Assembly (NCBI GenBank): GCA_039803745.1
Contig: JBDRZD010000001.1
Coordinates: 2,146 to 66,145 of the forward strand
DNA: 64,000 nt
DNA from: a candidate division WOR-3 bacterium
Lineage (GTDB): Bacteria; Hydrothermota; Hydrothermia; Hydrothermales; Hydrothermaceae
Direction of reading: 5' to 3'
Part shown: piece by piece, positions 3,777-39,892 of the stretch
Position numbering within the stretch: position 1 is the first letter of the stretch
Layout: each line of letters opens with the position of its first letter
The notes under the pieces: generated by a model
Told to the model about the DNA's origin: nothing
What the model saw: the letters and a program-made list of their open reading frames with translations, nothing else
Databases searched by the model: none
Translations under genes and position numbers: made by a program

Positions 3777-5913
3777 CCAGTTTTTTTTCTATTTTGATTT
3801 CTTCGTAGGCTTCAATTATGTCTCCCTCTTTTATTCCGTCAAATCCCTTAAATTTTATACCGCAGTCATATCCTTCAATTACTTCTCTTACATTCTCCTG
3901 AAATCTTTTTAATGATTCTATTTCTCCCTCAAAAATATTCTCTCCATCTCTTATTATTTTTATTTTTGAGTCCCTTTTAATTTTACCTTTTAAAACGATG
4001 CATCCTGCAACTTTTCCCACCCCTGATATTTTAAATACTCTCTTTATTTCTGCTTCTCCTATCTTTTCATATTTTATTTCCGGCTCAAGTAATCCCTCAA
4101 GAAGTTTTCTTACTTCATCTATTACATCATATATTAATCTATATTCTTTTATAACCACTCTTTCCCTTTTTGCTGCCTCTTTTGCCTTTAAATCAATTCC
4201 TGTATTAAAGGCAATTATTATTCCCTTTGATGCCTGTGCAAGTAGCACATCCGATTCTGTTACAACACCAACTCCTTTATGAATTATGAGTGTCCTTACC
4301 TCTTCATATTCAAGTTTTGATAATACATCTGAGAGGGCATCAGCAGAACCCTGACAATCTGCTTTAATTATAATTGGTAATTCTTTTAACTCACCTTTTT
4401 TTATTTTTTCCTGTATATCTGTAAGGGCTCTATAAAGTTCACCCTTTTTTATCTGCTCTCTTTTTAAGATTTTCTTTTCCTCTGCAACTCTTTTTGCTTC
4501 TTTTTCATCATCAAAAGCAATTAGGATATCACCAGCCTCAGGGAGTTCTTCAAAACCCTGAATTAAAACAGGCGTTGAAGGAAATGCTTCATATATTTTT
4601 TCTCCCCACTCGTTATACATTGCTCTTACTTTACCATATGCAGTTCCTGCAACAATAGGATCCCCTATTTTCAATTTTCCCTCCTGAACTATGCATGTTG
4701 CAACAGGTCCTTTACCTTTATCAAGTTTTGATTCAAGTATAACTCCCTTTGCATTTCCTTCAAAGGATGCAAAAAGTCCTATTTCTTCAGCTTTTACAAG
4801 TATCGCTTCAAGAAGTTCATCAATACCATCCCCTCTTAATGCAGAGATATTTACTGTTATTGTATCTCCTCCCCAATCTTCAGGAACTATTCCGATATCG
4901 CATAACTCTTTCTTTACAAGTTCTGGATTTGCAGTTGGTAAATCAATTTTATTTATTGCAACTATTATTGGAACTTTTGCTGCCCTTGCATGAGATATTG
5001 CCTCTATTGTTTGCTCTTTTACCCCTTCATTTGCTGCTACAACAAGTAAAGCAATATCAGTGATTTGAGCACCTCTTGCTCTTAACGCTGTGAAGGCTTC
5101 ATGGCCTGGTGTATCTATAAAAGTTATTTTTTCACCATGATGCTCCACCTGATATGCACCTATATGCTGTGTTATTTTCCCATATTCTTTTGCAGCAACA
5201 TCTGTTTTTCTAATATAGTCAAGCAATGTAGTCTTTCCATGGTCAACATGCCCCATAACAGTTACAACCGGTGGTCTTTTCTTAATTTCTCCCTTTTTTG
5301 ATATTTCTTTTATTTCCTCAAATTTTACTATCTCTGTTTCATATCCAAAATCTTCTGCAATCAATGTTATTGTATCTATATCAATTACCTGGTTCATTGA
5401 AACAAATAATCCCATGTTAATGCATTTTTGAATTATCACACTCGGGGCAACACCAAGCATCTTTGCAAGTTCGTAGGCTGTTAATGGTCCTGGAATTTTC
5501 AAAATCTTTTTCTCCGGGACTATCACTTTTTCCTCATCTTCCTTTTTATATCTTTTCCTTGGTTTTATCCCCTCAATTACAGCCATTGTCTTTTTGATCT
5601 TTTCTTCAACCTTTCTTTCATCCACTTTTTTTATCTTCTCCTTTTTTTCTTCTTCTGAGGGTGCCTTAATTCCGAGAATTTCTATCTTTCTCTTTAAACT
5701 CTCCTCTTCCTTTTTCTTTTCCTCTTCTATTTTTTCTCTTATTTTTTCCTGAGCCTCCTTACTTACTATACTCCTTATCGATCTTACAGGATACCCTATT
5801 GATTTTAACAATTCCTTTACTGCTTTTGAAGAAAGTCCTAACTCTTCCGCAAGTTTTGTTACGCTCTTACCTTCTTTTTTGTTTACTTCTTTTTCCTTCT
5901 TTTTTTCTTTCAT
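3751..5913 (-). CDS. infB: Translation initiation factor IF-2
   Basis: 720 aa. Lys/Glu-rich N-terminus, then a GTPase domain (VTVMGHVDHGKTTLLD, DTPGHEAF, NKID) and IF-2 C-terminal domains. Confidence 0.9.
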   Translation of the reverse strand: MKEKKKEKEVNKKEGKSVTKLAEELGLSSKAVKELLKSIGYPVRSIRSIVSKEAQEKIREKIEEEKKKEEESLKRKIEILGIKAPSEEEKKEKIKKVDERKVEEKIKKTMAVIEGIKPRKRYKKEDEEKVIVPEKKILKIPGPLTAYELAKMLGVAPSVIIQKCINMGLFVSMNQVIDIDTITLIAEDFGYETEIVKFEEIKEISKKGEIKKRPPVVTVMGHVDHGKTTLLDYIRKTDVAAKEYGKITQHIGAYQVEHHGEKITFIDTPGHEAFTALRARGAQITDIALLVVAANEGVKEQTIEAISHARAAKVPIIVAINKIDLPTANPELVKKELCDIGIVPEDWGGDTITVNISALRGDGIDELLEAILVKAEEIGLFASFEGNAKGVILESKLDKGKGPVATCIVQEGKLKIGDPIVAGTAYGKVRAMYNEWGEKIYEAFPSTPVLIQGFEELPEAGDILIAFDDEKEAKRVAEEKKILKREQIKKGELYRALTDIQEKIKKGELKELPIIIKADCQGSADALSDVLSKLEYEEVRTLIIHKGVGVVTESDVLLAQASKGIIIAFNTGIDLKAKEAAKRERVVIKEYRLIYDVIDEVRKLLEGLLEPEIKYEKIGEAEIKRVFKISGVGKVAGCIVLKGKIKRDSKIKIIRDGENIFEGEIESLKRFQENVREVIEGYDCGIKFKGFDGIKEGDIIEAYEEIKIEKKLDDSSKNHI

Positions 5914-7127
5914 TCAAAAACTTCTTTATTTTCTTTAATTATCCTTTCAATTTCTTCTTCGGATATAAGTTTTGAACTTTTGATTCTTCCAATAAGTTCT
6001 TCAATTGAAAATACACCATCCACTTCTTTAAGGAGGCTTGCTTTTATCTCTTCATCAAGTTTTAATTTTTCAATTGAGATCTTTTTCTTTCCTACATACT
6101 CACTTTGTGAAACAACCCATATTTCTTTTCCCACAAGTGCTGAAGCAAGTAAAACATTTTGTGAAGCAGTTCCCTTCGCCACTTTTATTTCTTCATCGGG
6201 AACAATTGCTATTATTTTTTCTTCACTTTCAAATACATTCATAGGATGTGCAGGTGAAAGAGCTCTTGCTGCAAATGTAAGGATATCAGGATCCCATTTT
6301 ATTATATCTATCTTCTCACCAGAAAGTTCTTTTGTAATAACTTGGATTCTTGTTCCTTTAATTCCTACACATGCTCCAAGTGGGTCAATCTTTTCATCTT
6401 TTGAATGGACAGCAACCTTTGCTCTTTCTCCTGGAAAACGTGCAATTCCTTTTATTTCAATAAGTCCTTCCATAAGCTCGGGTATCTCCATTTTCATTAA
6501 TTCTTTCAAAAAGTTTGGATGCGTCCTTGATAGTTTTACGAATGGTCTTTTCCCTTTTGTCTCAACTTCAATTATCAAAGCCTTTATATTTTGACCCGGT
6601 CTATACTTCTCCTTTTTGATTTGCTCTTCAGGAGGTAAAAAACCCTCAACTTTTCCAAGTCCCACATATATTCCTGTCTTATCAACTTTTTGAACCATCC
6701 CAGTTATTATTTCTCCGATTCTGTCTTCAAATCCTTTATAAATATGCTGCTTTTCAGCTTCCTGAATCTTTTGTAAAAAGATCTGTTTCATTCTTAAAAT
6801 AACACTTCTTCCTATCTCACTTTTTAGATCAATAGGAACTTTTATTTTTATTCCCGGAACAGGAAATGGATAATACTCCTTGGCATTTTCAACTTCAATC
6901 TGATACCTCGGATCAAAAACTTCTTTAACAACTTCCTTTTCTACATTTATTTCTATTTTTCCTGTTTTTCCATCAATTTCCACCTCTATAGGATAATTTG
7001 GATCCCTATAAACCCTTCTTATTGCAAATATGAATGACTCCCTTAAAGAGTTTATAACAAATTCTCTATCAAGACCTCTTGTTCTTGTAATTTGTTCAAC
7101 AAGTTCTTTTATTTCAATACTTTCCAT
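5910..7127 (-). CDS. nusA: Transcription termination/antitermination factor NusA
   Basis: 405 aa: MESIEIKELVEQITRTRGLDREFVINSLRESF..., with S1 and KH regions (GACVGIKGTRIQ). Confidence 0.9.
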   Translation of the reverse strand: MESIEIKELVEQITRTRGLDREFVINSLRESFIFAIRRVYRDPNYPIEVEIDGKTGKIEINVEKEVVKEVFDPRYQIEVENAKEYYPFPVPGIKIKVPIDLKSEIGRSVILRMKQIFLQKIQEAEKQHIYKGFEDRIGEIITGMVQKVDKTGIYVGLGKVEGFLPPEEQIKKEKYRPGQNIKALIIEVETKGKRPFVKLSRTHPNFLKELMKMEIPELMEGLIEIKGIARFPGERAKVAVHSKDEKIDPLGACVGIKGTRIQVITKELSGEKIDIIKWDPDILTFAARALSPAHPMNVFESEEKIIAIVPDEEIKVAKGTASQNVLLASALVGKEIWVVSQSEYVGKKKISIEKLKLDEEIKASLLKEVDGVFSIEELIGRIKSSKLISEEEIERIIKENKEVFE

Positions 7128-7584
7128 AATTCTCCCATTCTATAAGTTGTGCTTTTTTTATTTCATTAAAAAAAATATAAACAATTTCCTTTTCTTTTTC
7201 AATCCCTATTTTTTCATCATTCACAAAAACAAGGGTTCCCTTTTCTTCCTTTCCCTCTCCATAAATTACCTTAATCTTTTTACCACAAGCCCATCTATAC
7301 TCCTTCTTTTTCTTTAAAATTCTATCAAGACCAGGTGAAGAAACTTCAAGAATATAATCAAGGGGAATTTCCTTTAAATGAAGAATCTCTAATATATCTT
7401 CTGCAAGTTTTTTGGTATCTTCAGCAGTCACACCCTCATTCTTATCTACAAAAACCTCTATTTTACCGCTTCTTCCCACTCCTTTCCAGTTTATATCAAC
7501 AAGAAAAAAACCCTCCTCTTTTAAAAAGGGCTCAAGAATCTCTTCAAGTTTTTTTTCAATTTCTTCCTTTTCAAACATTTCCAT
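7114..7584 (-). CDS. rimP: Ribosome maturation factor RimP
   Basis: 156 aa containing YILEVSSPGLDRIL, the RimP signature. Immediately upstream of nusA. Confidence 0.8.
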   Translation of the reverse strand: MEMFEKEEIEKKLEEILEPFLKEEGFFLVDINWKGVGRSGKIEVFVDKNEGVTAEDTKKLAEDILEILHLKEIPLDYILEVSSPGLDRILKKKKEYRWACGKKIKVIYGEGKEEKGTLVFVNDEKIGIEKEKEIVYIFFNEIKKAQLIEWENYGKY

Positions 7585-9289
7585 CTTTGCTTATTTCCTC
7601 CTTTATTTTAAAAAGTTTTTCAAAAAAATTATCTTTTTTTACATCAATTATTTCTTTCGTTTTCCTTATTCTTATTTCAATTAAATCATTCTCCAAAAAT
7701 TTTTTACCAAATGTTATCCTTACTGGAATTCCTAAAAGATCAGCATCTTTAAACTTTGTGCCGGGTGTCTCCTCTCTATCGTCCATTAATACTTCTTCAT
7801 TTTTTTCAGAAAGTTCTTTATAAATTCTTTCGCTCTCTTCCTTAATCTTTCCTTTGAATTCCACTGGAAGAATATGAAATATAAAAGGGGCTATTGAAGG
7901 GGGCCATATCATTCCATCTTCATCAGCGTATAGTTCTTGAGAAGCAGCCATTATTCTTCCCAGCCCTATTCCATAACTACCCATTATAACAGGTTTTAAT
8001 TCTCCTTTTCTATCTGTATAATAAACTCCCATTGTTTCAGAGTATCTTGTTCCAAGTTTAAAAATATGTCCAATTTCTATTGCTTTTTTAATCAAAAGTT
8101 TTTCTTTACATTTCGGGCACAAATCTTCTTCTTTTATTTTTCTTATATCAAAATATTCTTTTACTTTAAAATCAACATCCGGTGTAACACCAACTATATG
8201 ATAATTCTCTTCATTTGCGCCCACAACCCCATTTTTTATCCCTTTTATTGAATAATCCCCTATTATTTCGTCAACACTTATCCCAATAGGACCTATAAAT
8301 CCTGCTGAGACATTGAATTCATTTAATATTTCTTGAGCGCTGTATATCTCTGCATTTCTTCCAAAAATCTTTGCAAGTTTTACCTCATTTATTTCACAAT
8401 CACCCCTTATAAGAACTAAAACTTTTTTCCCGTTTATTTTAAAAAGTATGCTTTTTATTATTTCCTTTTCACTAACTCCTAAAAATTCAGAAACCTCTTT
8501 AACAGTTCTTACATTTGGTGTAAAAACTTTTTCTTTTCTTTTATATTTCCCTTCAATACTTTCATTTAAAGAATAAGCCTCTGCTATTTCTATATTTGCT
8601 GAATAGGAGCATTTAGGGCAAAATACGAGTGTATCTTCACCTGAGTCAGATTCAACCATGAATTCATGGGATTCCTTTCCTCCCATAAGTCCTGTTGATG
8701 CCTGAACCACTTTAAATATAAGCCCACATCTTCTAAATATTCTTGAATAGGCTTCATAATGCAATTCATAACTTTCATCAAGTCCTTCCCATGTGGCATC
8801 AAGAGAATAAGAATCCTTCATTGCAAATTCTCTACATCTTATTAAACCGCCTCTTGGTCTTGGCTCATCTCTAAATTTTACCTGTATCTGATACCATATC
8901 TGTGGAAGTTCTTTATATGACCTTATTTCATTTTTAACAAGTTCTGATATTATCTCTTCATGGGTTGGTGCAAGTGAAAAGTCCCTCCCTTTTCTATCCT
9001 TTAATCTGAACATATCATCACCAAAAGAATACCATCTTCCTGATGCTTCCCACAACTCTTTTGGTGTAAGTGCAGGATAATAAAATTCCTGGCCTCCTAT
9101 TCTATCCATTTCTTCCCTTATTATATTTGATATCTTCTTAAATACTCTCCATCCAAGAGGTAAAAATGTATAAATTCCTGAAGCGACCTGTCTTATAAAT
9201 CCTCCTCTTAAAAGCAAAATAAAACTCTTAACCTCTGCTTCTTTTGGATTTTCTTTTAAAGTCGGTATAAAACTTTTTCTCCACTTCAT
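7571..9289 (-). CDS. proS: Prolyl-tRNA synthetase (class II)
   Basis: 572 aa: MKWRKSFIPTLKENPKEAEVKSFILLLRGGFIRQVASGIYTFLPLGWRV..., with class-II motifs and the archaeal/bacterial ProRS C-terminal region. Confidence 0.9.
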   Translation of the reverse strand: MKWRKSFIPTLKENPKEAEVKSFILLLRGGFIRQVASGIYTFLPLGWRVFKKISNIIREEMDRIGGQEFYYPALTPKELWEASGRWYSFGDDMFRLKDRKGRDFSLAPTHEEIISELVKNEIRSYKELPQIWYQIQVKFRDEPRPRGGLIRCREFAMKDSYSLDATWEGLDESYELHYEAYSRIFRRCGLIFKVVQASTGLMGGKESHEFMVESDSGEDTLVFCPKCSYSANIEIAEAYSLNESIEGKYKRKEKVFTPNVRTVKEVSEFLGVSEKEIIKSILFKINGKKVLVLIRGDCEINEVKLAKIFGRNAEIYSAQEILNEFNVSAGFIGPIGISVDEIIGDYSIKGIKNGVVGANEENYHIVGVTPDVDFKVKEYFDIRKIKEEDLCPKCKEKLLIKKAIEIGHIFKLGTRYSETMGVYYTDRKGELKPVIMGSYGIGLGRIMAASQELYADEDGMIWPPSIAPFIFHILPVEFKGKIKEESERIYKELSEKNEEVLMDDREETPGTKFKDADLLGIPVRITFGKKFLENDLIEIRIRKTKEIIDVKKDNFFEKLFKIKEEISKDGNV

Positions 9290-9337
9290 AGTTTTTAATT
9301 TTAACTCAAATAAAGGTAAAAAATCAAAGAGAAAATC

Positions 9338-10351
9338 TCAACGGGAATTTCTTATAATTATTTTGCCATCCGAGGTTATTAATGGAGATGTAAGGGGAAA
9401 ATCTTCAAAAGATAATGATTTTATTAAATTTGCAGATTGATTCAGTGTATCTAATTCAAGAACTCCATCACTTCTTTGAATTGCAGAAATAATTTCTCCC
9501 CCAAGAAAGTTGCCTTCAAAATCCATATACACTTTTAGAATTGGTGCATAACCGCTTACCCCTTCAATATTAAAACCATATGTAAAAAAATTACCAAGAC
9601 TATAGGCAATAAGACGGTTTTTGTATACTTCAATAGCTCTTGGGACATGTGGGCCGTGTCCCCATACTAAATCAGCACCACTATCAATAACTGCATGACT
9701 GAATTTAATCAGATTACCCCTTTTTTCACCAAGATAATATTCCATTGTGTCTTTTAGATGGAGATAATCAATTCCCTCCCCACCTCCATGAAAGGAAACT
9801 ATTACAATGCCATATTCTCTTTTCTTTTCTGCAACAATTTTTGTTGCTCTTTCAATGTTTAATATTGAATTTTCGCATCTTCCAAAAGAAAAAGATAGAA
9901 TACAAATACTGATATTTTTTATATTAAATTTTCCATATTCATCACAGGTTCCATACTGTATATCCAGAGATTTTAAAATATTTATTGTAGATTCAAGACC
10001 TTCTTCTCCAAAATCATAAATGTGATTGTTATTTAGATTCACAAAATCAAATCCTGCGTCTTTAAGATAATAAGCATATCTTGTGGGAGTTCTGAAAGCG
10101 TATACTTTTCCTTTTTCAATCTTTTTACTGCAGCTCCTGCTTTCTGTTAAAGGTCCTTCAAGATTTCCAAGTGTTAAATCAGCATTTTTTAAAATATCTA
10201 TAACATTTTTAAAGATGTATTTTCCATCAGAAGGAGGAAGCCTTTTTTCAGGATAAGTTGTTCCCATCATAATATCACCAACCATTATGATGCTTAATGT
10301 ATCTGCAAAAATATTACTCCATATAAAAAGATAAAATAACATTCTTTTCAT
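9338..10351 (-). CDS. CapA/PGA_cap-family metallophosphoesterase, exported
   Basis: 337 aa. N-terminal signal peptide, MVGDIMMG motif, VSFHGGGEG and WGHGPHV motifs of the CapA calcineurin-like family. Confidence 0.7.
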   Translation of the reverse strand: MKRMLFYLFIWSNIFADTLSIIMVGDIMMGTTYPEKRLPPSDGKYIFKNVIDILKNADLTLGNLEGPLTESRSCSKKIEKGKVYAFRTPTRYAYYLKDAGFDFVNLNNNHIYDFGEEGLESTINILKSLDIQYGTCDEYGKFNIKNISICILSFSFGRCENSILNIERATKIVAEKKREYGIVIVSFHGGGEGIDYLHLKDTMEYYLGEKRGNLIKFSHAVIDSGADLVWGHGPHVPRAIEVYKNRLIAYSLGNFFTYGFNIEGVSGYAPILKVYMDFEGNFLGGEIISAIQRSDGVLELDTLNQSANLIKSLSFEDFPLTSPLITSDGKIIIRNSR

Positions 10352-11667
10352 CTTTTAAATTCTCTTATAAAGAATTTTCCCGGGCATAAAGTATATTTAT
10401 TATAATCCCTGTGCATTTTTATTTCCTTTATTTTAAAAATTTTTTTTAAATTAAAAACTAAATTTTTAAGTGCCCTTAATTGCCTTTTTAACGGTTTTTC
10501 TTCTTCAAAATTACCAATCAATGCAATTCCTATGCTATTTTTATTTTTACTCTTTGTATGTGCCCCTTCATAATAAATATTTCTTCCGCAAACTATTTCA
10601 CCATAAGGAGTTATCAAAAAATGATATCCAATATCATTAAAATTTCTTTTTAAATGTTCTCTTTGTATTTTTTTAATTGTTTTTAATCCTTCGTAATCTT
10701 TCCTGCTTGGAATAGCAGTATGATGAATTATTATTCTTTCTGGGAAATTTAAATTCATTTTATCTAAATTGATTTTATAAGGTTTCCAATCTTTTCTTGA
10801 AATGAATTTATTTATTCCACAAATCCTTTCTATTTTTTGTATTCCTTTTATAATTTCTTCATCTTTATATTTTTTGTTTATTTCAAAAACAAGATAAATA
10901 TTCTTTATTTTTTCAATCTCTTTAAAAAGTTCTTTGAAATTAATTTCTCCGTTAAAAGGTGGTCTATGTTCATCAAACCCCTTTATATCATGAATATGAA
11001 TACCGAGGATTTTATCTTTAAAATTTTTTAAATAAGAGGGCTCTTTTAATACCTTTTCCCTGACATAAGCATGACCCAGATCATGCCAGTAATATAAACT
11101 TTTAGAATTCATCTCTTCAAATATTTTACTTAACTCAAAAAAATTTGGAAATTCACCCGGATAAAATCTTATTTCAAGGGCTATATTTATTTTTAATTCC
11201 TCTGATATTTTTAATAATTTTTCAAAATTCTTAAAAAACCTTGATAAATAAATTTTGCTCTTTTTTTCTCTTTCTTTCAAAAATTCTTTCAAAAATTCTT
11301 TTCTTCCTTTTTTAAGAATTTCTTCTCCTATCTCTTCATTCCCTCCTGCATGTATTATTACATATTTCATATTTCTTTCTTTTGCAAATCTAATTGAGTT
11401 CTCAATATACTTTATTGAATTTTTCACAATTTCTTTATCTTCACTTATAAGATCTATAAGTCTTGATGCACCATTTATTTTTTTAACAAGTGGAGCAGGG
11501 GAATGGACTCCAAGAAAAGGAATTCCATATTTATCAAATATTCTTTTGTTTTTAAAAAAATCATTTATTGTATCCCTATAATTTAATTCAGCAAAGAATA
11601 TATTAATTTTTTCAACAATTTTTCTTAATTTCTTATAATCCCCACAGGATGTAGAAATTCCTACCAT
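10348..11667 (-). CDS. Two-domain protein: xylose-isomerase/endonuclease-IV-like TIM barrel fused to an Amidase_2 (AmpD/PGRP-type N-acetylmuramoyl-L-alanine amidase) domain; no signal peptide
   Basis: 439 aa. The N-terminal ~290 aa carry FLGVHSP...YVIIHAGG...WHDLGH...IHIHDIKGFDEHRPPFNGEINF, the metal-binding pattern of the AP_endonuc_2 TIM barrel. The C-terminus carries IIHHTAIPS...GYHFLI...NSIGIALIGNF...HRDYNKYTLCPG, the Zn ligands and the Tyr/Lys of T7-lysozyme/AmpD-type amidases. Confidence 0.65.
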   Translation of the reverse strand: MVGISTSCGDYKKLRKIVEKINIFFAELNYRDTINDFFKNKRIFDKYGIPFLGVHSPAPLVKKINGASRLIDLISEDKEIVKNSIKYIENSIRFAKERNMKYVIIHAGGNEEIGEEILKKGRKEFLKEFLKEREKKSKIYLSRFFKNFEKLLKISEELKINIALEIRFYPGEFPNFFELSKIFEEMNSKSLYYWHDLGHAYVREKVLKEPSYLKNFKDKILGIHIHDIKGFDEHRPPFNGEINFKELFKEIEKIKNIYLVFEINKKYKDEEIIKGIQKIERICGINKFISRKDWKPYKINLDKMNLNFPERIIIHHTAIPSRKDYEGLKTIKKIQREHLKRNFNDIGYHFLITPYGEIVCGRNIYYEGAHTKSKNKNSIGIALIGNFEEEKPLKRQLRALKNLVFNLKKIFKIKEIKMHRDYNKYTLCPGKFFIREFKR

Positions 11668-11668
11668 T

Positions 11669-11900
11669 TTTTTGGCAAAATTACCTTAAAAAATCTTTTT
11701 CCCATATTTTTTGTTCAAAACATAAAAATGGTGCTTTGATCATTCTCTTGGTAAAATTACCTTAAAAAGTCTTTTTTCAAACATTTTTTGGTTTAAACAT
11801 AAAAATGATGCTTTGTTCATTCCTTTGGCAGAATTGCTTCAAAAAGTCCTCTTTCAAATTTTACATCCGGAATCTTTGTAATCCATATTTTAAAATCGTA
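11669..11900. repeat. Tandem direct repeat, about 2.5 units of 76-79 bp, derived from the 3' end of lptD
   Basis: Units 11669-11747 and 11748-11823 are ~85-90% identical (ttggYaaaattaccttaaaaaRtcttttt.caaa.cattttttg.ttYaaacataaaaatgRtgctttgWtcattcYc). Both resemble the genuine gene terminus at 11824-~11900. Each unit keeps a complement of the stop codon and translates to a KMFEKRLFKVILP-like relic of the real C-terminus ERGLFEAILPKE. Confidence 0.7.
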
Positions 11901-13835
11901 ATCCCATATATTTCCTATTCTATGCCAGTTAAACCTTGCTGAAAAACAATGTAAGTTTCTTGTTATAGAAATACTTCTTTCAACAAATATTTTCCTTTCT
12001 GTGTCATAACTTGCATGAAAATTTATAAAAAAGTTTTTTGTCAAACCCCCTTGAATATTAAAATTCAAAAATCCCTTTGCTCCTCCTATATTTTTATATG
12101 TATAAGTTAAATTCATATTCCAGGGAGATACATTTGAGTTAAATAAAAAATCAGATAAAATTTTTAATGGTATATTACCTGAAAGATAAATGTTTAAATC
12201 TTTCCACTTTTTTTCATCTTTATAATAAATCAGGGAAAAAGAAAAATTGAAAGGCAATGTCCTTAAAAGATCTCCGTTTAAATTTATATTACTCCATTCC
12301 TTTTCAATAATATTATAATTTCTGGATAGCACAAATGATAAAATATGTAATCTTTCATTTTTTAATTTTGTTTCATAATCGTTAGCAAGATTAAAAGATA
12401 AAATACTTTTTCTCCTGCATTCTCCAAGACCTAAAAATGGTTTAACTGGTGGATTTTTAATATAAGGTGCGAAACTATAACCTGTTGAAATTGTCATAGT
12501 ATGAAGAAATTTTTCAAATGGTGGTATTTTAAAAATTGAAATTCCATAAATTTTTGTTCCTAAAGATGTATTTAAATTTAAACTCTTTAAAAAGGGATAA
12601 TTTCTTCCAGTTGTATCTTTATTTAAAATTCCTGCCTTTGTATTTAAATTTGCATTTAAATTTAGAACATCAAAAATTATTTTATTTATTCCAATTGCAT
12701 TTCCTGCCATAAATCCGCTTCTTTCTTCTTTTAATATAGTATCTCTGTATATTTCCCTTAAATATGAGAAACTTGCAGAAGTTCTCAAAATTTTAAGATC
12801 TTTTTGAAAGATTGTCAAATTTATTTTTGGTAAATTCATTCTTTCTATTTTATTTATAAAATCCTTTTTATAATTAGAATTTATTAAAAAACTTCCTATT
12901 TTAAAACTTCTTGATAAGGAGATTTCACTTTCTGATTCACTTTTTACCCTTTGAGCCCTTATGTCAGAATACTCTAATATATACTTTTTGTCTGAAACAA
13001 AATCGCTTCTTGCTTTTAAATTAAAACCCAATGGAAGAATTTGATCATGATTACCAATTAAACTCCACCTTTTCATCTTTGTATCAATTTCCCTTGTATA
13101 AGTAAATTTAAAATTTCCAGAAATTTTTTTATACAAAATATAAACAAAATCAACTCCAAAAAGTGCTCCCTTTCTTTCATACAAATCAAGATTTAATGTT
13201 AAATCCATATAATTGTTTATTACAAAGTAATAACTTAAATCCCTTATATAAAGACCAAGATTTGAATTTCTACCAGGTCTTGGAATTAAAAATCCTGATT
13301 TTCTATCCTTTGATATTGGAAATACCCAGAAAGGCAAAATTAAAATGGGTATTTCCTCTATATCCATTAAAACAGGTGTTGCAATAACTGCATCATCTAT
13401 TATAACTTTCATTTTTTTAGAAGTAAAATAATAATGGGGTTCAGAGAGTTCACAGGTTGTGAAAAATCCAGTATACCCTTTAATAACCTTTTTTTCAGTT
13501 TTATAAATTTTTTCTCCCCATACAAATCCCTTTTCAACTTTTGATTTTCCCTTATAAACAAAACCCTTTTGTGTTTTTATATTAAATCTCATCAAAGAAC
13601 CTTTAAGAGTATCTTTCCCTGAAATAAGCACAGGGTTTCCCTTTGCAATTAATAATTCTTCCTTTCTTAAAAATGTGCAGGAATCCGAAAAGAGTTCTAT
13701 ATCTCTATATCTTATATATGCATTTCCTTTCAAAACTATTTTTTCCTCTTCTGGATTATAAAATATTGAGTCTCCTTTAAAATATATTGTGTCTTTAAAT
13801 TGTCCAAAAATAAAGAAAAGAAAAAAATTTAGCAC
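11817..13835 (-). CDS. lptD: LPS-assembly outer-membrane protein LptD (OstA/Imp)
   Basis: 672 aa. Signal peptide, an OstA-like N-terminal domain (LKGNAYIRYRDIELFSD...AKGNPVL), and conserved barrel-entry motifs TTCELSEPHYYF...ILPFWVFPISKDRKSGFLIP...YYF. Confidence 0.75.
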   Translation of the reverse strand: MLNFFLFFIFGQFKDTIYFKGDSIFYNPEEEKIVLKGNAYIRYRDIELFSDSCTFLRKEELLIAKGNPVLISGKDTLKGSLMRFNIKTQKGFVYKGKSKVEKGFVWGEKIYKTEKKVIKGYTGFFTTCELSEPHYYFTSKKMKVIIDDAVIATPVLMDIEEIPILILPFWVFPISKDRKSGFLIPRPGRNSNLGLYIRDLSYYFVINNYMDLTLNLDLYERKGALFGVDFVYILYKKISGNFKFTYTREIDTKMKRWSLIGNHDQILPLGFNLKARSDFVSDKKYILEYSDIRAQRVKSESESEISLSRSFKIGSFLINSNYKKDFINKIERMNLPKINLTIFQKDLKILRTSASFSYLREIYRDTILKEERSGFMAGNAIGINKIIFDVLNLNANLNTKAGILNKDTTGRNYPFLKSLNLNTSLGTKIYGISIFKIPPFEKFLHTMTISTGYSFAPYIKNPPVKPFLGLGECRRKSILSFNLANDYETKLKNERLHILSFVLSRNYNIIEKEWSNINLNGDLLRTLPFNFSFSLIYYKDEKKWKDLNIYLSGNIPLKILSDFLFNSNVSPWNMNLTYTYKNIGGAKGFLNFNIQGGLTKNFFINFHASYDTERKIFVERSISITRNLHCFSARFNWHRIGNIWDYDFKIWITKIPDVKFERGLFEAILPKE

Positions 13836-16022: not shown

Positions 16023-16052
16023 TTGCACTCTTTTTCAAGTAAGGTTTATAAT
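16023..16052 (+). promoter_or_regulatory. Candidate sigma70-type promoter: -35 TTGCAC, 18-bp spacer, -10 TATAAT
   Basis: TTGCAC at 16023-16028 and TATAAT at 16047-16052, about 12 nt before the ATG at 16065. It sits in the 70-bp divergent gap between the tRNA-Cys and the REC-kinase gene. Pattern match only. Confidence 0.35.
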
Positions 16053-20787: not shown

Positions 20788-23517
20788 ATGAAAATAGATG
20801 AAAAAAAATTAAGAATTATCCTTTTTTCTTCTGTTACATTTTTTGTATTCATAATATATTTTTTAACAACAGCACCTACAGTAGTTTTCTGGGATGTAGG
20901 TGAGTTCCTTGCAACTTCCTATATTCTTGGTATACCCCATCCACCAGGAACTCCTCTTTATGTAATCCTTGGCAGGTTCTTTTCCATTCTTCCCTTACCT
21001 TTAAATACAATTAAAAAGATAACACTTATTGCAATTCTTTCAGGTGCTTTTTCAGCAGGATTTGCTTATATAATAACAGTAAAGATAATTGATTTATTTA
21101 GAGGAAATGTTTCAAAATGGATACAGCATTTATCAGGAATTGTTGCAGGGCTTATATCTCCATTTGCCTATACAACATGGTGGTCAAGCATTGAAGCAGA
21201 AACTTATGCACCTTCAAACTTTTTTATGCTCCTTTCAACCTATCTTGCCCTCCTTTGGTGGGAAAACAGAGAAAAAAATGATTCTGTTAAATATCTTATT
21301 TTAATAATCTATCTTTTAGCACTTGGTTCAGGTATCCATCTTTCCGCCCCTTTTATATTTCCTGCAATGTTTGTTTTTGTTCTTTTTACAAAACCCAAAA
21401 TAGTTCTTGATTTTGAACTTCTTGGAACATTTTCATCTTTTTTAATTCTTATTTCAGCGATATTTCCTACTTTTACACCGCCTTCATGGGGAAAAGCAAT
21501 AGTATTTTATCTCTTAGGGGCAGGTGGTGGAGCCATATTTCTTTATGCAAAGAAATATTTTAAAGAGTTTGGATTTAAGGAAGGCATTTTCTTTGCGTTA
21601 GTTACAATCTCAATTGTTTCTGCCTATATGGGTTATGTATTTCTCTTTGTAATTGGTTCCATTCTTACCTTTTTATCTATTCTTATCTTTGGTAAATTGT
21701 ATCTTGAGTATAAGGGAGTAAGTTTAATCCTTGCCTTAATTGCTGTTTCGGCGGAATTCTATCTCCTAATAAGAGCACATCATAATCCATCAATAAATGA
21801 ATCTGATCCAAAAACATGGCAGGCATTCTGGGATGTCCTTTTAAGAAAACAATATCCACCTGCTGATGTATTCCCAAGGAAAGTGCCTTTTTTTGAACAA
21901 TTAAAACTTTTCTGGACATATTTTGCAGGAAGACCTGGTGATATAGGTATGCCTCCTCAGTATGTTCCATTAATTTTTATTTTAGGATTTATAGGTTTTG
22001 CATTGCATATTGCCTATGAAAGAAAAAGTTTTTCCCTTCTTGGAACAGCACTTATTTTAACAACACTTGGTCTTATTTTTGTTTTGAATTTAAAATATTC
22101 TGCAACAGATCCAAGACCTTATATACCTGAAGAACTCAGGGAAGTAAGGGATAGGGACTATTTCTTCATACCAGGTTTTTTCTATTTTGGAATATATGCA
22201 GGGATTGGATTTTTTGGTGTTTTTAAACTTGCTATAGAAAATCTAAAGTTTTTTAGGAAAATCAGCATTTATGTTGCTTTAATCTTTGCTTTACTTTTAC
22301 CTTTATGGCAGATTTCAGCCTATTATAAAATGGTGGATAGGTCAAGAAATTATTCCTGTGAGGATTATGCATATAATCTTTTAAACTGTGCAGAGGATAA
22401 AGGTGTTCTTTTTACAAATGGAGACAATGATACATTCCCTTTATGGTGTGCTCAAGAGGTTCTTGGAATCAAAAAATCTGTAATTATTGCAAATTTATCC
22501 CTTTTAAACACAAACTGGTATAATAAACAACTTAAAAGACTTGGTGTCCCTTTCTATTTTACAGAGGAGGATATGGATAAATTAACACCATTTATAGGTC
22601 CTGATGGTGAGATTGTTCTTGTTAGAGATTTAGTTATAAGGGATATGCTTGCAGCAAATTTTGGCTATGAACTTCCAAAAGATCCAAAGGAATATGTTAC
22701 ACTTCCAAGGATTGGTTTAAGATTTCCCAAAATATATCTTTCTCCTGCTGAGGAGTTTGCTCAAAAGGTTATAGAAGGAAGGAAGCCAAAATTGCCCATA
22801 TATTTTTCAATAACCTGTGAAACAAAAGTTTATAGGGGATTTAAAAATTATTTAATTCTTGAAGGAATGGTTTATAGAGTTGTTCCCTATAAAGTAAATA
22901 CAGAAACCCCTCTTGGCTATGCTGTTGATATGGAAAAAACAGATTCTCTATTCTTTAAGGTTTTTAAATATAGAGGATTCACTGATGAAAATAAATTCTT
23001 CATAGATAGAACCCATCAGAGAATTCTCTCAAATTACCGTGCACCACTTACAGTTCTTGCCATTCTTTATTTTGAAAAAGATGATGTGGAAAGAGCAATA
23101 AATACAATTGAATTTGCTTTAAATTTTGAGGGCAATAAAAATTTGATGGATAAGGATGACAAAAGAATTTCTTACTTTATAAAACTTCAACTTGCTCAAT
23201 TCAGTATAAAGGGTTCTTATTATGACAGGGCTATATCTATTTGTAATGAACTTTTAAAAGAAGAAAAAAATAGCATTGTTTATACTTTAATGGGAGATGC
23301 CTATATGGGGAAGGGGGAGTTAAATTTGGCAAAGAATTATTATAATCTTGCTTTAAATATACCCCCGCCTTTTATGAAAACCTATGCTTCCCTTATGGAA
23401 CTTTATTCAATGGAAAACAAAAGAGATAGTTTAAAGATTATTTTTGAAATGGCGAAAAAGAGATTTGGAGAAAATCCCAATCTTGATTCCTTAAAGGCGA
23501 AATATAAAATTGATTGA
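20788..23517 (+). CDS. DUF2723-family polytopic membrane protein (PMT/GT39-like fold) with C-terminal TPR repeats
   Basis: 909 aa. The N-terminal signature TAPTVVFWDVGEFLATSYILGIPHPPGTPLY matches DUF2723, followed by more than 10 TM helices. The last ~200 aa look TPR-like (GDAYMGKGELNLAKNYYNLALNI). Confidence 0.65.
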   Translation: MKIDEKKLRIILFSSVTFFVFIIYFLTTAPTVVFWDVGEFLATSYILGIPHPPGTPLYVILGRFFSILPLPLNTIKKITLIAILSGAFSAGFAYIITVKIIDLFRGNVSKWIQHLSGIVAGLISPFAYTTWWSSIEAETYAPSNFFMLLSTYLALLWWENREKNDSVKYLILIIYLLALGSGIHLSAPFIFPAMFVFVLFTKPKIVLDFELLGTFSSFLILISAIFPTFTPPSWGKAIVFYLLGAGGGAIFLYAKKYFKEFGFKEGIFFALVTISIVSAYMGYVFLFVIGSILTFLSILIFGKLYLEYKGVSLILALIAVSAEFYLLIRAHHNPSINESDPKTWQAFWDVLLRKQYPPADVFPRKVPFFEQLKLFWTYFAGRPGDIGMPPQYVPLIFILGFIGFALHIAYERKSFSLLGTALILTTLGLIFVLNLKYSATDPRPYIPEELREVRDRDYFFIPGFFYFGIYAGIGFFGVFKLAIENLKFFRKISIYVALIFALLLPLWQISAYYKMVDRSRNYSCEDYAYNLLNCAEDKGVLFTNGDNDTFPLWCAQEVLGIKKSVIIANLSLLNTNWYNKQLKRLGVPFYFTEEDMDKLTPFIGPDGEIVLVRDLVIRDMLAANFGYELPKDPKEYVTLPRIGLRFPKIYLSPAEEFAQKVIEGRKPKLPIYFSITCETKVYRGFKNYLILEGMVYRVVPYKVNTETPLGYAVDMEKTDSLFFKVFKYRGFTDENKFFIDRTHQRILSNYRAPLTVLAILYFEKDDVERAINTIEFALNFEGNKNLMDKDDKRISYFIKLQLAQFSIKGSYYDRAISICNELLKEEKNSIVYTLMGDAYMGKGELNLAKNYYNLALNIPPPFMKTYASLMELYSMENKRDSLKIIFEMAKKRFGENPNLDSLKAKYKID

Positions 23518-24526
23518 AGAAATTGAAAAATTGTCCTCTCTTTTTGGTCCTTCAGGGAAAGAGGAAGAAGTTAGAGAATACATTAAAAACTCTATAAGCT
23601 CTTTTGCTGATGAGATACACGAAGATAGTTTCGGAAATCTTTATGTTAAAAAGGGAAAAGGAAAACCTCGTGTTCTTTTATGTTCTCATATGGATGAGGT
23701 TGGATTTATAATAAAGGAGATAGACGAAAAAGGATATCTTAAGTTTTCTCCAATAGGTGGCATAGAGCCAGAAACTGCTATTGGTAAAAGGATTATTTTT
23801 GAAAATAAAAGAAAAGGAGTGATAGGTTATAAGCCCATTCATTTACAGGATAAAGAAGAGAAGGAGAAAAAAATTTCCTTTGATGATCTTGTTATAGATG
23901 TGGGTATGGGAAAAGGAGAAGTAAATAAGTTTTTTTATAAGGGAATTTATGCAGTTTTTGATACCTCCTTTGGTAAATTAAATAAAAAATTTTATAAAGG
24001 AAAAGCCTTTGATGATAGAATAGGCTGTGCTATTTTGATGGAAATAATAAAAAATTTTAAACCTGATTTTGAACTATTTTTTCTTTTTTCCACTCAAGAA
24101 GAGGTTGGTTTAAGAGGAGCAAAGATTGGTGCGGAAAAAATTAAACCTGATATTGGGTTTGTAATTGAATGCACTGCTGCAAGTGATTTTTATAGAGAAG
24201 ATAAAGAGGATTTTCCTGCACTTTGTAAAGGCCCTGTTTTAACGACTGTGGATAGATCATGCATAGTAGACTTTGAAATTTTAGAAATTATAAAGAAAGT
24301 TGCGAAAAAAAATAATATACCATTTCAATATAAAAAACCTTTAATTGGTGGAACTGATGCAGGGAATATTCAGATTGCAGGTAAAGGAGTGAAAATGGGG
24401 ATAGTTTCTGTTACTGCAAGATACATTCATTCTCCTGTTTCAATAATAAATGAAGAAGATTTAAAAAATACCTATTTTCTTTGTTTAAAATTTTTAAAGG
24501 AGATAAAAAAATGGATGAAATTTTGA
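23510..24526 (+). CDS. M42-family aminopeptidase (FrvX/TET-like)
   Basis: 338 aa with the family metal ligands present: CSHMDEVGF, DDRIGCA, QEEVGLRGA, and a C-terminal IHSP. Confidence 0.75.
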   Translation: MIEEIEKLSSLFGPSGKEEEVREYIKNSISSFADEIHEDSFGNLYVKKGKGKPRVLLCSHMDEVGFIIKEIDEKGYLKFSPIGGIEPETAIGKRIIFENKRKGVIGYKPIHLQDKEEKEKKISFDDLVIDVGMGKGEVNKFFYKGIYAVFDTSFGKLNKKFYKGKAFDDRIGCAILMEIIKNFKPDFELFFLFSTQEEVGLRGAKIGAEKIKPDIGFVIECTAASDFYREDKEDFPALCKGPVLTTVDRSCIVDFEILEIIKKVAKKNNIPFQYKKPLIGGTDAGNIQIAGKGVKMGIVSVTARYIHSPVSIINEEDLKNTYFLCLKFLKEIKKWMKF

Positions 24527-25425
24527 AGGAATTGACATATGAATTTGGTGCATCAGGACATGAGGAAAGGTTAAGGGAAAGTATTAAGAATTTTTTAAAG
24601 GGTTTTAAAATTAACGAGGACAATTTTGGCAATTTAATAATTTCAAATACCTCTTCACCAAAATTCTTTTTTTTAACAGGAATTGATGAATCAACATTTT
24701 TTATAAAAGAAGAAGAAAAAGGGCTTTATAAGTTTTCTCTTATTGGTGATTATATACCAATAAATATAATAGACCGCTTTGTTGTTTTTAAGGATGGAAA
24801 AAGGGGAATAATAAGAAATTTGAAAGAAAAAGGTGAGCCTGAAATTTCTGACCTGAGAGTTGAAATTTTAGGTAAGAAAAAATCCGAAATAGGGGAGGCT
24901 TTTATAATAGAACCTTTCTTTTATAATGAAAAAAATCTTTATATCTCCTCAAATCTTGATTCAAGAATTTGCGCGAGTTTTTTAATTCATTTCTTAAAGA
25001 ATCATGAAAACTTTCCCTTGAAGATCGTCTTTCTTGTGAAGACAAAATTAAGTGAAAAAGGTGCGTTACCTGCTATGATTGATGAGAATCCCGAATTTAT
25101 TTTTGTTTTGGGTAGTGCACCTTGTAAGGATGGAATTGAAACTGGAAGAGGACCTGTGATAAGTTTTATAGAAAAGAATTATGTTTTGCCTTCTTATTTA
25201 AAAGGAAAATTGTTAAAGATTTTAGAAAAAGAGAATGTTCCATTTCAAAAAAGGCTTTCAGAAGATTATTCAAATTTCAATTTTTATCTTTTCCATTCAG
25301 GTTATAAAGATTCCTTTTTTATTTATTTACCCGTGAAATATAAAAACAGTGTATATAAAGTTCTTGAAAAAAAGGATTTAGAAACACTTGAAAGACTCTT
25401 TGAAATTTTATTAAAAAAACTTTAA
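24511..25425 (+). CDS. M42-like paralog with degenerate active site (probable non-catalytic subunit)
   Basis: Start at ATG 24511 (MDEILKEL...), 8 nt after an AAGGAG. The fold-level pattern matches the upstream M42, but the HxD metal motif is LTGIDESTF (His lost), the EE pair is reduced to SEKG, and the C-terminal His is absent. Confidence 0.5.
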   Translation: MDEILKELTYEFGASGHEERLRESIKNFLKGFKINEDNFGNLIISNTSSPKFFFLTGIDESTFFIKEEEKGLYKFSLIGDYIPINIIDRFVVFKDGKRGIIRNLKEKGEPEISDLRVEILGKKKSEIGEAFIIEPFFYNEKNLYISSNLDSRICASFLIHFLKNHENFPLKIVFLVKTKLSEKGALPAMIDENPEFIFVLGSAPCKDGIETGRGPVISFIEKNYVLPSYLKGKLLKILEKENVPFQKRLSEDYSNFNFYLFHSGYKDSFFIYLPVKYKNSVYKVLEKKDLETLERLFEILLKKL

Positions 25426-26163: not shown

Positions 26164-26172
26164 GGGGTGTTT

Positions 26173-39447: not shown

Positions 39448-39892
39448 AATAATTGCTGAAAATAAAAAGGTTTATAGAGATTATGAGATTCTTGAAGAAA
39501 TAGAAGCAGGGATAGAACTTTTAGGTGGCGAGGTTAAATCCATTAAGAATGGCGCAATATCTTTAAAAGATTCTTTTGTCAAATTTGAAGGGGGTGAAGC
39601 CTTTATTTTGAATTTATACATAGCACCTTATAAATATTCAGGAAGTATTCCTTACGACCCTGAAAGAAAAAGGAAACTTTTACTTAAAAAAGCAGAAATA
39701 AAAAGGCTCATTGGAAAAGTGAAAGAAAGAGGACTTACAATTGTTCCCTTAAAGGTTTATTTAAAAAGAAAATGGATAAAGGTTTTAATAGGTCTTGTTC
39801 GCGGAAGGAAAAAATATGAAAAAAGGCAAATAATAAAGGAAAGAGAAATAAAAAGGGAGATCGAAAGAGAACTCAAAAAAAGGTATGGTTAA
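39434..39892 (+). CDS. smpB: SsrA-binding protein
   Basis: 152 aa: IAENKKVYRDYEILEEIEAGIELLGGEVKSIK.G..SLKDSFV...GEAFILNLYIAPY and a basic C-terminal tail. Confidence 0.85.
   Translation: MEMIKIIAENKKVYRDYEILEEIEAGIELLGGEVKSIKNGAISLKDSFVKFEGGEAFILNLYIAPYKYSGSIPYDPERKRKLLLKKAEIKRLIGKVKERGLTIVPLKVYLKRKWIKVLIGLVRGRKKYEKRQIIKEREIKREIERELKKRYG

Follow-up and report, generated by a model that had tools for sequence, protein, structure and literature searches.

The window analysed here, a 64-kb stretch of DNA from a WOR-3 bacterium, contains a gene in which a TIM barrel is joined to an Amidase_2 domain. The fusion gene is real and conserved, and very narrow in its distribution. In the reading that we put forward, tentatively and as close to but short of an even call, its product is a cytoplasmic bifunctional enzyme that processes peptidoglycan fragments in a small WOR-3 lineage, the amidase acting first and the barrel then on the muramic-acid sugar. 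Detailed knowledge of peptidoglycan recycling is limited to a few model bacteria, and for the deep-branching uncultured phyla the pathway is mostly guessed by homology. The fusion physically ties a predicted muropeptide amidase to a barrel family with a solved structure (MJ1311), which leads to a short list of candidate substrates, namely anhydro-MurNAc, MurNAc-6-P, MurNAc-1-P and UDP-MurNAc.

Results

Domain layout and predicted location of the fusion protein

The open reading frame begins with ATG and encodes a product of 439 aa (Table 1). Pfam assigns AP_endonuc_2 (PF01261) to residues 41-275 (E 7.5e-21; score 75 bits, cut-off 31) and Amidase_2 (PF01510) to residues 309-431 (E 6.2e-18; score 65.8 bits, cut-off 26), and the barrel (residues 1-286) passes into the amidase (residues 287-439) with no linker between them. 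The AlphaFold model (pLDDT 76) displays eight strands in the barrel, while its amidase half is of low confidence. The pairing of the two domains and the intactness of a metal-dependent TIM barrel, both proposed in a first-pass annotation made from the DNA letters, are thereby borne out.

The same annotation had described the protein as lacking a signal peptide, and three observations agree with it. The ATG is the first start codon 3' of an in-frame stop, with no in-frame start upstream; residues 2-5 form barrel strand beta-1 in the AlphaFold model, as they do in the free-standing homologues; and a Kyte-Doolittle scan revealed no hydrophobic segment, the top 19-residue stretch of the protein reaching only 0.74. 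Because the N-terminus is itself the first strand, without an upstream start or a hydrophobic stretch, no export signal is predicted, and in this respect the fusion protein appears to share the cytoplasmic location of AmpD.

Table 1. Features of the fusion gene and its flanks, in window coordinates
Feature	Position	Strand	Evidence
Fusion gene (439 codons + TGA stop)	10348..11667	-	ORF list, two Pfam domains, 11 full-length orthologues
N-terminal AP_endonuc_2 / MJ1311-like TIM barrel, residues 1-286	10810..11667	-	
C-terminal PGRP/T7-lysozyme-type Amidase_2, residues 287-439	10351..10809	-	Pfam + PGRP-LB alignment
Putative multinuclear metal ligand H55	11503-11505	-	
Putative multinuclear metal ligand H106	11350-11352	-	
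Putative multinuclear metal ligand E165	11173-11175	-	
Putative multinuclear metal ligand D196	11080-11082	-	
Putative multinuclear metal ligand H199	11071-11073	-	
Putative multinuclear metal ligand H224	10996-10998	-	
Putative multinuclear metal ligands D232/E233/H234	10966-10974	-	
Putative multinuclear metal ligand E262	10882-10884	-	
Amidase Zn ligand H315	10723-10725	-	Aligns to PGRP-LB H42
Amidase catalytic residue Y348	10624-10626	-	Aligns to PGRP-LB Y78
Amidase Zn ligand H419	10411-10413	-	Aligns to PGRP-LB H152
Amidase catalytic residue T426	10390-10392	-	Aligns to PGRP-LB T158
Amidase Zn ligand C428	10384-10386	-	Aligns to PGRP-LB C160
lptD-like gene, conserved upstream neighbour	11817..13835	-	Pfam LptD_2, E 6e-38; synteny
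Tandem repeat, 77 bp, 2.5 copies	11665..11858	-	TRF score 244, 80% matches
CapA-like (PGA_cap) gene, signal-peptide-like N-terminus	9338..10351	-	Pfam PGA_cap, E 8.7e-46

Conservation and distribution of the fusion

Full-length orthologues with both domains in one reading frame were found in assemblies from NCBI, JGI, ENA and Logan. They form 11 orthologous clusters, are 62-99% identical, and their loci were read from at least six independent assemblies. Mean pairwise identity is 67% in the barrel and 72% in the amidase, showing similar purifying selection on both domains, and the junction between them (residues 283-296) is likewise conserved.

A profile built from the 11 orthologues was searched against 1.84 billion representative proteins, in which the fusion makes up one 50%-identity cluster. 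This was the only cluster with both domains among the matches listed (scores above about 104 bits), and the remaining matches in multiple stretches were tandem Amidase_2 repeats. Patterns drawn solely from the amidase half placed the fusion in 3 of 185,579 GTDB species. All carriers are WOR-3 or Hydrothermus-like, a small group of uncultured bacteria from hot springs and the subseafloor. Its database entries carry no more specific label than 'TIM barrel protein' or 'sugar phosphate isomerase/epimerase', and a full-text literature search returned no paper naming both Pfam families. We thus found no earlier description of the architecture in the literature searched, as had been surmised at first pass.

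The amidase domain

Alignment to Drosophila PGRP-LB (1oht) matched the complete set of zinc ligands and catalytic residues that had been noted at first pass, and all five residues are invariant in 11 of 11 orthologues. The best solved relatives of the domain are PGRPs (E about 1e-14), with T7 lysozyme also among them. The third zinc ligand of AmpD is an aspartate (His-His-Asp); the corresponding position of the fusion protein is occupied by Cys428 in all orthologues, and at E <= 0.1 neither an AmpD model nor any other amidase model of NCBIfam matched. Consequently, of the earlier label 'AmpD/PGRP-type' only the PGRP side stands: the domain is of the PGRP/T7-lysozyme type, with His-His-Cys zinc ligands, and not of the AmpD type.

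The putative metal site and family of the barrel

The barrel was compared with the trinuclear metal centre of E. coli endonuclease IV (Nfo), whose ligands are H69, H109, E145, D179, H182, H216, D229, H231 and E261. All nine positions are occupied in the barrel, with the H55/H69 pair the weaker. In the hhalign alignment E165 is paired with E145, D196 with D179, H199 with H182, H224 with H216, D232 with D229, H234 with H231 and E262 with E261, and MAFFT pairs H106 with H109. H55 falls within three columns of H69, an equivalence that depends on a three-column manual shift and strand order with no significant alignment. The nine positions are 99-100% conserved among 78 family members. In UlaE only four of them are kept, as an E-D-H-E set (E155, D185, H211 and E251, aligned by hhalign to E165, D196, H224 and E262), whereas H55, H106, H199, D/E232-233 and H234 of the barrel are five further invariant metal-type residues with no UlaE counterpart.

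By fold, Foldseek ranked UlaE and the D-tagatose or D-psicose epimerases highest, and hhalign aligns the barrel with UlaE at 95.7% probability. The best NCBIfam match is fructoselysine 3-epimerase, whose 39.9 bits compare with a cut-off of 305, the UlaE-type models score 25.6 against 317, and CbiR, a small-molecule phosphodiesterase already placed in the AP_endonuc_2 superfamily (PMC7733943), scores 17.9 against 105, which is below equivalog level. Similarity to Nfo stays below family level, with an hhalign probability of only 15.7%, no NCBIfam Nfo model matched and a PDB profile match to endonuclease IV at E 0.012. The closest solved relative is MJ1311 (3wqo), listed as a predicted EndoIV homologue of Methanocaldococcus jannaschii (PMC2770678). 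Its structure was released in 2014.

Judged by its closest solved relative and its nine conserved positions, the barrel belongs to an MJ1311-like branch, an informal nine-ligand group, and is probably not an ordinary one-metal sugar-phosphate isomerase/epimerase. The isomerase/epimerase label of the first-pass annotation is in this respect superseded, nine Nfo-type positions being kept against four in UlaE. Since the barrel is MJ1311-like and retains the nine three-metal positions, a two- or three-metal site would be expected, and the chemistry could be a hydrolysis or an elimination instead of an isomerisation.

Genomic neighbourhood

The fusion lies directly downstream of lptD in the orthologous loci (synteny in L001-L005 and L013-L015), where the lptD stop overlaps the fusion ATG by 4 nt in every case. 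In this genome 149 nt separate the two genes owing to the 77-bp repeat, which alignment to the orthologous junctions identified as a duplicated lptD 3' end specific to this genome; its core has no second site within the 64-kb window. The conserved operon partners are an amidohydrolase, accD and lptD, none of which is a recycling gene, and no ampG, nagZ, anmK, murQ or other recycling gene was found within the window. For cell division the window already supplies amidase machinery of its own, with an Amidase_3 gene (39885-40925) besides two M23 peptidases, so that a lytic role is not needed from the fusion. The ATG of the CapA-like gene overlaps the stop codon of the fusion (ATGA). This neighbour, reported at first pass, is genuine but is missing downstream of the fusion in 8 of 8 orthologous loci examined, and was rejected as a functional partner.

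Free-standing barrels and an archaeal locus with AnmK

One locus from a Thermoproteota MAG (L034) has the gene order GH18, exported Amidase_2, nine-ligand barrel and AnmK. Its amidase is 44% identical to that of the fusion, its barrel 24% identical (E 2.5e-9), and its AnmK (E 1.7e-97) has the barrel directly downstream. An intact copy of the same barrel (P0261) was found elsewhere. A second homologue, 42% identical to the L034 barrel (P0262), adjoins a GFO_IDH_MocA sugar oxidoreductase and a DegT aminotransferase, with neither AnmK nor an amidase at that locus. L034 would support a muropeptide-sugar role and counts as one independent lead. The link to AnmK is not general: AnmK stands beside the barrel in L034 only, and the association with AnmK and an amidase is that of one archaeal species.

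A Rosetta-stone test found no Amidase_2 neighbour at 80 of 80 free-standing barrel loci. The recurrent neighbours of these loci are Memo, DUF1844, LPG_synthase_TM, M16, M24, patatin and RmuC; the set resembles a gene order passed down within Omnitrophota and is uninformative, and the commonest members (Memo, DUF1844, LPG_synthase_TM and the M16 peptidase) say little on muropeptides. Homologues in Auribacterota sit in a cluster of nucleotide-sugar and glycosyltransferase genes.

Discussion

Proposed function and its alternatives

A role in recycling, as suggested at first pass, is still the most plausible reading, with the archaeal locus that holds AnmK, barrel and amidase together as an added lead. 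In the proposed mechanism the amidase, with zinc at H315, H419 and C428 and with Y348 and T426 as catalytic residues, would cut muropeptides, whether imported or arising from turnover, at the amide bond between MurNAc and L-Ala, the same job that AmpD performs in proteobacteria. The barrel would then act on the freed muramic-acid sugar, either anhydro-MurNAc or, after AnmK, MurNAc-6-phosphate. Candidate reactions are dephosphorylation of MurNAc-6-P, analogous to MupP, or elimination of the lactyl ether, analogous to MurQ; a one-metal 3-epimerisation is held to be less likely than these.

Closest to the first-pass view is a barrel that works as a classical one-metal isomerase or 3-epimerase of sugars or sugar phosphates and isomerises the anhydro-muramic sugar freed by an AmpD-like amidase. 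It would agree with the closeness in sequence and fold to ketose 3-epimerases and pentulose-phosphate 3-epimerases, with fructoselysine 3-epimerase as best NCBIfam match, with the E165-D196-H224-E262 tetrad and with the sugar oxidoreductase and aminotransferase beside P0262. We nevertheless consider it unlikely, given scores far under every equivalog cut-off and the five metal-type residues that UlaE lacks. Moreover, the 1,6-anhydro bridge of anhydro-MurNAc locks its pyranose ring and C3 carries an ether, leaving the sugar a poor substrate for 3-epimerisation or aldose-ketose conversion. The endonuclease-IV-type ligand set and the phosphodiester hydrolysis by CbiR would also suit a phosphodiesterase or pyrophosphatase for activated wall precursors (UDP-MurNAc-peptide, lipid I/II or another polyprenyl-phosphate-linked sugar), with the amidase stripping the peptide during disposal or salvage at the inner face of the membrane. 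The close coupling of the fusion with lptD, an envelope gene, throughout the orthologues points the same way, as do a flippase-like LPG_synthase_TM gene adjoining the free-standing homologues in 12 of 68 loci and the WecA/MraY-type transferase, glycosyltransferases and Wzy_C next to those of Auribacterota. However, most of the neighbour links come from a single phylum and may reflect common descent of the gene order, the Kyte-Doolittle scan gave no membrane-binding segment, the CbiR model scores far under its cut-off, and we know of no PGRP-type amidase that works on nucleotide- or lipid-linked precursors; this alternative appears decidedly unlikely.

The nine conserved ligand positions and the listing of MJ1311 as an EndoIV homologue could be taken to mean that the halves have unrelated jobs, the barrel being a DNA repair nuclease, or that the protein is lytic, the amidase serving as an autolysin or a predatory lysin that leaves the cell with no signal peptide in the manner of phage T7 lysozyme, which is among its solved relatives; many close amidase relatives likewise lack signal peptides. 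Such a division of roles is very unlikely in view of the weak Nfo scores and of a fixed chromosomal place in a housekeeping operon with no phage context, and MJ1311 reportedly has no DNA-binding groove. A comparable multinuclear site built from His, Asp and Glu is used by the multinuclear iron oxidases related to MbnB/DUF692 (MNIO), and a barrel of this kind might modify the stem peptide or another peptide. Pfam gave no DUF692 match in the fusion protein, and O2-dependent chemistry is improbable in a Hydrothermus-type host lineage from anoxic hot fluids, which makes this option extremely unlikely. The chance that the fusion is an artefact, either a frameshift or an assembly chimera of two genes, is negligible: the frameshift contemplated at first pass was not found, the reading frame running uninterrupted through all 11 orthologous clusters and across the conserved junction, and no evidence in favour of an artefact came to light.

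Implications

Beyond the favoured assignment of the fusion to peptidoglycan-fragment processing lies a further-reaching and doubtful reading, in which the nine-ligand barrels form a new class of muramic-acid enzymes, either a multinuclear-metal MurNAc-6-phosphate etherase/phosphatase or an anhydro-MurNAc ring-opening hydrolase. Such an enzyme would be an unrelated replacement for MurQ, MupP or part of AnmK. WOR-3 would have fused it to the step resembling that of AmpD, while some archaea of the Thermoproteota would employ it alongside AnmK for feeding on bacterial cell walls. If the barrel is a muramic-acid etherase or phosphatase, it would complete a variant of the recycling pathway in which a step is missing. 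In that case a function would also be assigned to many proteins now annotated as 'sugar phosphate isomerase/epimerase', a widespread group in Omnitrophota, Auribacterota, Firestonebacteria and archaea, and the endonuclease-IV metal centre would have, besides that of CbiR, a second use on small molecules. Should the barrel have no muramic-acid activity, the gene would be a lineage-specific domain fusion of modest interest.

Comparison with known systems

MJ1311, deposited as a 'D-tagatose 3-epimerase-like protein', is an archaeal protein that stands alone and carries no amidase; as no activity has been assigned to it, the likeness supplies no function for the barrel. Endonuclease IV belongs to the same superfamily, and its three-zinc positions hold the same residue types in the barrel. 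Among characterised enzymes UlaE and the D-tagatose and D-psicose 3-epimerases are the best profile and fold matches and have the E-D-H-E tetrad in common with it, but UlaE-type epimerases are without the five extra invariant ligand-type residues, and equivalog scores are far under the cut-offs.

AmpD, the proposed functional analogue of the amidase half, shares with it the Pfam family and the presumed compartment. It is a single-domain protein with Asp as third ligand, whereas the fusion amidase has Cys428 and animal PGRPs as nearest solved relatives. Catalytic PGRPs and T7 lysozyme match the fusion amidase residue for residue (H, Y, H, T, C), and the fusion amidase also has the 'SR.DW' segment found N-terminally in PGRPs; these are, however, secreted animal proteins or else phage proteins, while the fusion is encoded by a bacterial chromosomal gene and joined to a barrel. 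The nearest relatives of the amidase, 42-45% identical, are found in fusions of Amidase_2 with a GHL10 glycosidase-like domain (P0014, P0015 and L093). P0015 has a hydrophobic N-terminal segment, and P0014 starts right at the amidase domain. As in the WOR-3 protein, the amidase is fused in all three to a sugar-acting barrel, albeit one of another superfamily and in the reverse domain order.

A two-domain gene confined to one lineage

As the first-pass annotation had claimed, the fusion gene encodes a two-domain protein. AP_endonuc_2 (PF01261, residues 41-275, E 7.5e-21, confirming the N-terminal assignment) and Amidase_2 (PF01510, residues 309-431, E 6.2e-18) were both matched well over the curated Pfam cut-offs. 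The window, at about 29% GC, belongs to a low-GC genome, and the top database match (99% identity) is labelled 'MAG: TIM barrel protein [candidate division WOR-3 bacterium]'. Full-length orthologues, drawn from NCBI, JGI, ENA and Logan assemblies, form 11 clusters (62-99% identity, 437-448 aa) with both domains in a single ORF. This excludes the frameshift that had been named as a possible refutation and, as the fusion recurs in assemblies from all four sources, leaves an artefact a negligible probability. Mean pairwise identity is 67% for the barrel and 72% for the amidase, thus neither half is decaying; the domain junction (residues 283-296) is conserved in the orthologues, with essentially no linker.

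A profile of the 11 orthologues, compared with 1.84 billion representative proteins, found both domains together in exactly one 50%-identity cluster, tandem Amidase_2 repeats being the next best multi-stretch matches. The search for the same fusion in other genomes, suggested earlier, located it in 3 of 185,579 GTDB species representatives: a WOR-3 MAG, another MAG and Candidatus Hydrothermus pacificus. Among the papers covered by a full-text search, none named both Pfam families, in agreement with the initial impression that the pairing was not a described architecture. Thus, the architecture is real, undescribed and limited to one small lineage.

The gene order amidohydrolase, accD, lptD, fusion is retained in 8/8 orthologous loci, where the lptD stop and the fusion ATG share a 4-nt overlap. 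The gene that follows the fusion differs between loci and may encode Peptidase_M6, an HTH-cupin protein or thioredoxin, or be proS. In the window, a tandem repeat is inserted at the position of this ATGA overlap, each full copy consisting of the last ~40 nt of lptD and a 37-nt insert. It yields two small ORFs, linked through ATGA overlaps and ending 13 nt short of the fusion ATG, so that translational coupling from lptD to the fusion could be relayed through them. The CapA-like neighbour pointed out earlier does exist, its ATG overlapping the fusion stop. It separates the fusion from proS in this genome only and is consequently not a partner; its nearest NCBIfam model, lasso-peptide epimerase MslH, scores far under cut-off.

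Coordinates of the fusion gene, associated features and other observations
Feature	Position	Strand	Remarks
Fusion ORF	10348-11667	-	ATG start, 439 aa
CapA/PGA_cap-like gene	9338-10351	-	N-terminus signal-peptide-like
Tandem repeat	11665-11858	-	77-bp unit, 2.5 copies, lptD/fusion junction
Small repeat ORFs	11820-11740; 11743-11681		26 and 20 codons
Amidase_3 gene	39885-40925		Conventional
M42 aminopeptidase paralogues	23510-25425	+	Tandem, 46-nt overlap; second far more divergent (E 4e-11 vs 5e-85)
690-aa protein	26167-28239	+	SBP_bac_5 (family-5 solute-binding, E 1e-79) and C-terminal TonB_C (E 2e-20), an unusual pairing
911-aa protein	33926-36661	+	Peptidase_MA_2, PD40 beta-propeller repeats, C-terminal Omp85 barrel; peptidase may be anchored in outer membrane
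Consecutive ORFs, 222 and 983 aa	43378-46994	+	No Pfam match; flanked by large TPR protein and ECF sigma, anti-sigma (zf-HC2), PDZ gene set
GC-skew sign flips	~16000; ~56000		Coincide with gene-orientation switches (divergent genes at 16023-16028), hence coding-strand bias, not necessarily replication origin
L034 cluster	4731-9319		Thermoproteota archaeon MAG JAPDJW010000002.1 (L034 coordinates); genes arranged as GH18, Amidase_2, barrel, AnmK

The amidase half

Among solved structures, the amidase is closest to PGRPs (E about 1e-14) and to T7 lysozyme. Residues H315, Y348, H419, T426 and C428, invariant across the fusion orthologues, pair with H42, Y78, H152, T158 and C160 of PGRP-LB, which assigns the domain to the His-His-Cys class. 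The AmpD part of the AmpD/PGRP-type identity first proposed did not hold: with Cys at the predicted third Zn position and no match to the NCBIfam AmpD models, the protein is placed outside the AmpD family, and could nevertheless function like AmpD. The claimed lack of a signal peptide was substantiated, as the ORF opens at the first start codon following a stop, residues 2-5 form strand beta-1, likewise in free-standing barrels starting 'M..(L/I)STSW', and no hydrophobic stretch was found in the protein. Since the window also encodes Amidase_3 and two M23 peptidases, a cell-division cleavage role is met by other genes.

The barrel half

The fold by itself leaves the chemistry undecided, and the ligand residues were therefore examined. 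In a 78-sequence family alignment, H55, H106, E165, D196, H224, H234 and E262 are 100% conserved; H199 occurs in 77/78, and position 233 is acidic in 78/78. Alignment to E. coli endonuclease IV (Nfo) by hhalign pairs E165/E145, D196/D179, H199/H182, H224/H216, D232/D229, H234/H231 and E262/E261, while MAFFT pairs H106/H109 and places H55 ≤3 columns from H69; the strand order of the predicted model is consistent with this assignment. The control, E. coli UlaE, gave a better overall alignment (95.7% probability), yet has only the E-D-H-E tetrad in common. In combination, these comparisons suggest an epimerase-like overall sequence carrying, unlike UlaE, a full endonuclease-IV-like ligand set. 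The same combination was reportedly noted by the authors of the structure of MJ1311, the closest solved relative, in which the DNA-binding groove is said to be absent. The superfamily member CbiR is a small-molecule phosphodiesterase (PMC7733943); the fusion barrel was ruled out as a CbiR (17.9 vs cut-off 105).

Genomic contexts of related domains

Free-standing barrel homologues (about 304 aa, 25-33% identity; Omnitrophota, Auribacterota, Firestonebacteria) carry generic annotation only. Their recurrent neighbours in 80 metagenomic loci, Memo, DUF1844, LPG_synthase_TM and M16 peptidase, look mostly like inherited gene order. A Memo-family gene lies directly downstream in Omnitrophota (25 of the 68 loci having a downstream gene), and the flippase-like membrane protein LPG_synthase_TM 1-4 genes downstream of a nine-ligand barrel in 12/68 metagenomic loci, as is likewise seen at loci L006, L008, L016, L017 and L018. 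An Amidase_2 neighbour was sought at 80 free-standing barrel loci and found at none.

When 80 loci encoding amidase relatives were scanned, one striking case emerged, the archaeal cluster L034. Its PGRP-type Amidase_2 is exported, surface-anchored and 44% identical to the fusion amidase. The nine-ligand barrel (24% identity, E 2.5e-9) lies immediately downstream of AnmK (PF03702, E 1.7e-97) and is frameshifted in this assembly, an intact 279-aa copy (P0261) being present elsewhere. The cluster looks like a kit to feed on bacterial peptidoglycan, its host having none, and independently links this barrel type, in a single species, to anhydro-muramic acid metabolism. A 42%-identical homologue of the L034 barrel instead adjoins a GFO_IDH_MocA oxidoreductase and a DegT aminotransferase. 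A further archaeal locus, L093, brings together genes for an Amidase_2+GHL10 protein, a BNR_2 protein, a PfkB kinase and an AP_endonuc_2 barrel, the last being of the ordinary type with four ligands.

Proposed function

From the observed architecture, residues, conservation, distribution and gene order we tentatively infer the enzymatic steps of a bifunctional enzyme that would process muropeptides in the cytoplasm. The amidase half would take the stem peptide off the muropeptide, whereupon the barrel, probably with a two- or three-metal centre, would act on anhydro-MurNAc or MurNAc-6-P, hydrolytically or by elimination.

The barrel is unlikely to be the classical isomerase or epimerase of the first-pass annotation, and quite unlikely to be a phosphodiesterase whose substrates are wall precursors linked to nucleotides or lipids. 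It is improbable that the halves have unrelated functions, the barrel in DNA repair or the amidase in lysis; the combined contexts of the barrel relatives point to sugar or envelope chemistry over DNA repair. An MNIO-like oxidase is very improbable, and the remaining probability goes to functions outside those listed here. The main value of the fusion is that it offers a direct way to test, with a few muramic-acid substrates, what the uncharacterised MJ1311-like branch of barrels does. The AmpD arrangement is His-His-Asp, from which the putative His-His-Cys site of the fusion amidase differs. Both superfamilies are well known, and what is new is their undescribed, lineage-restricted combination.
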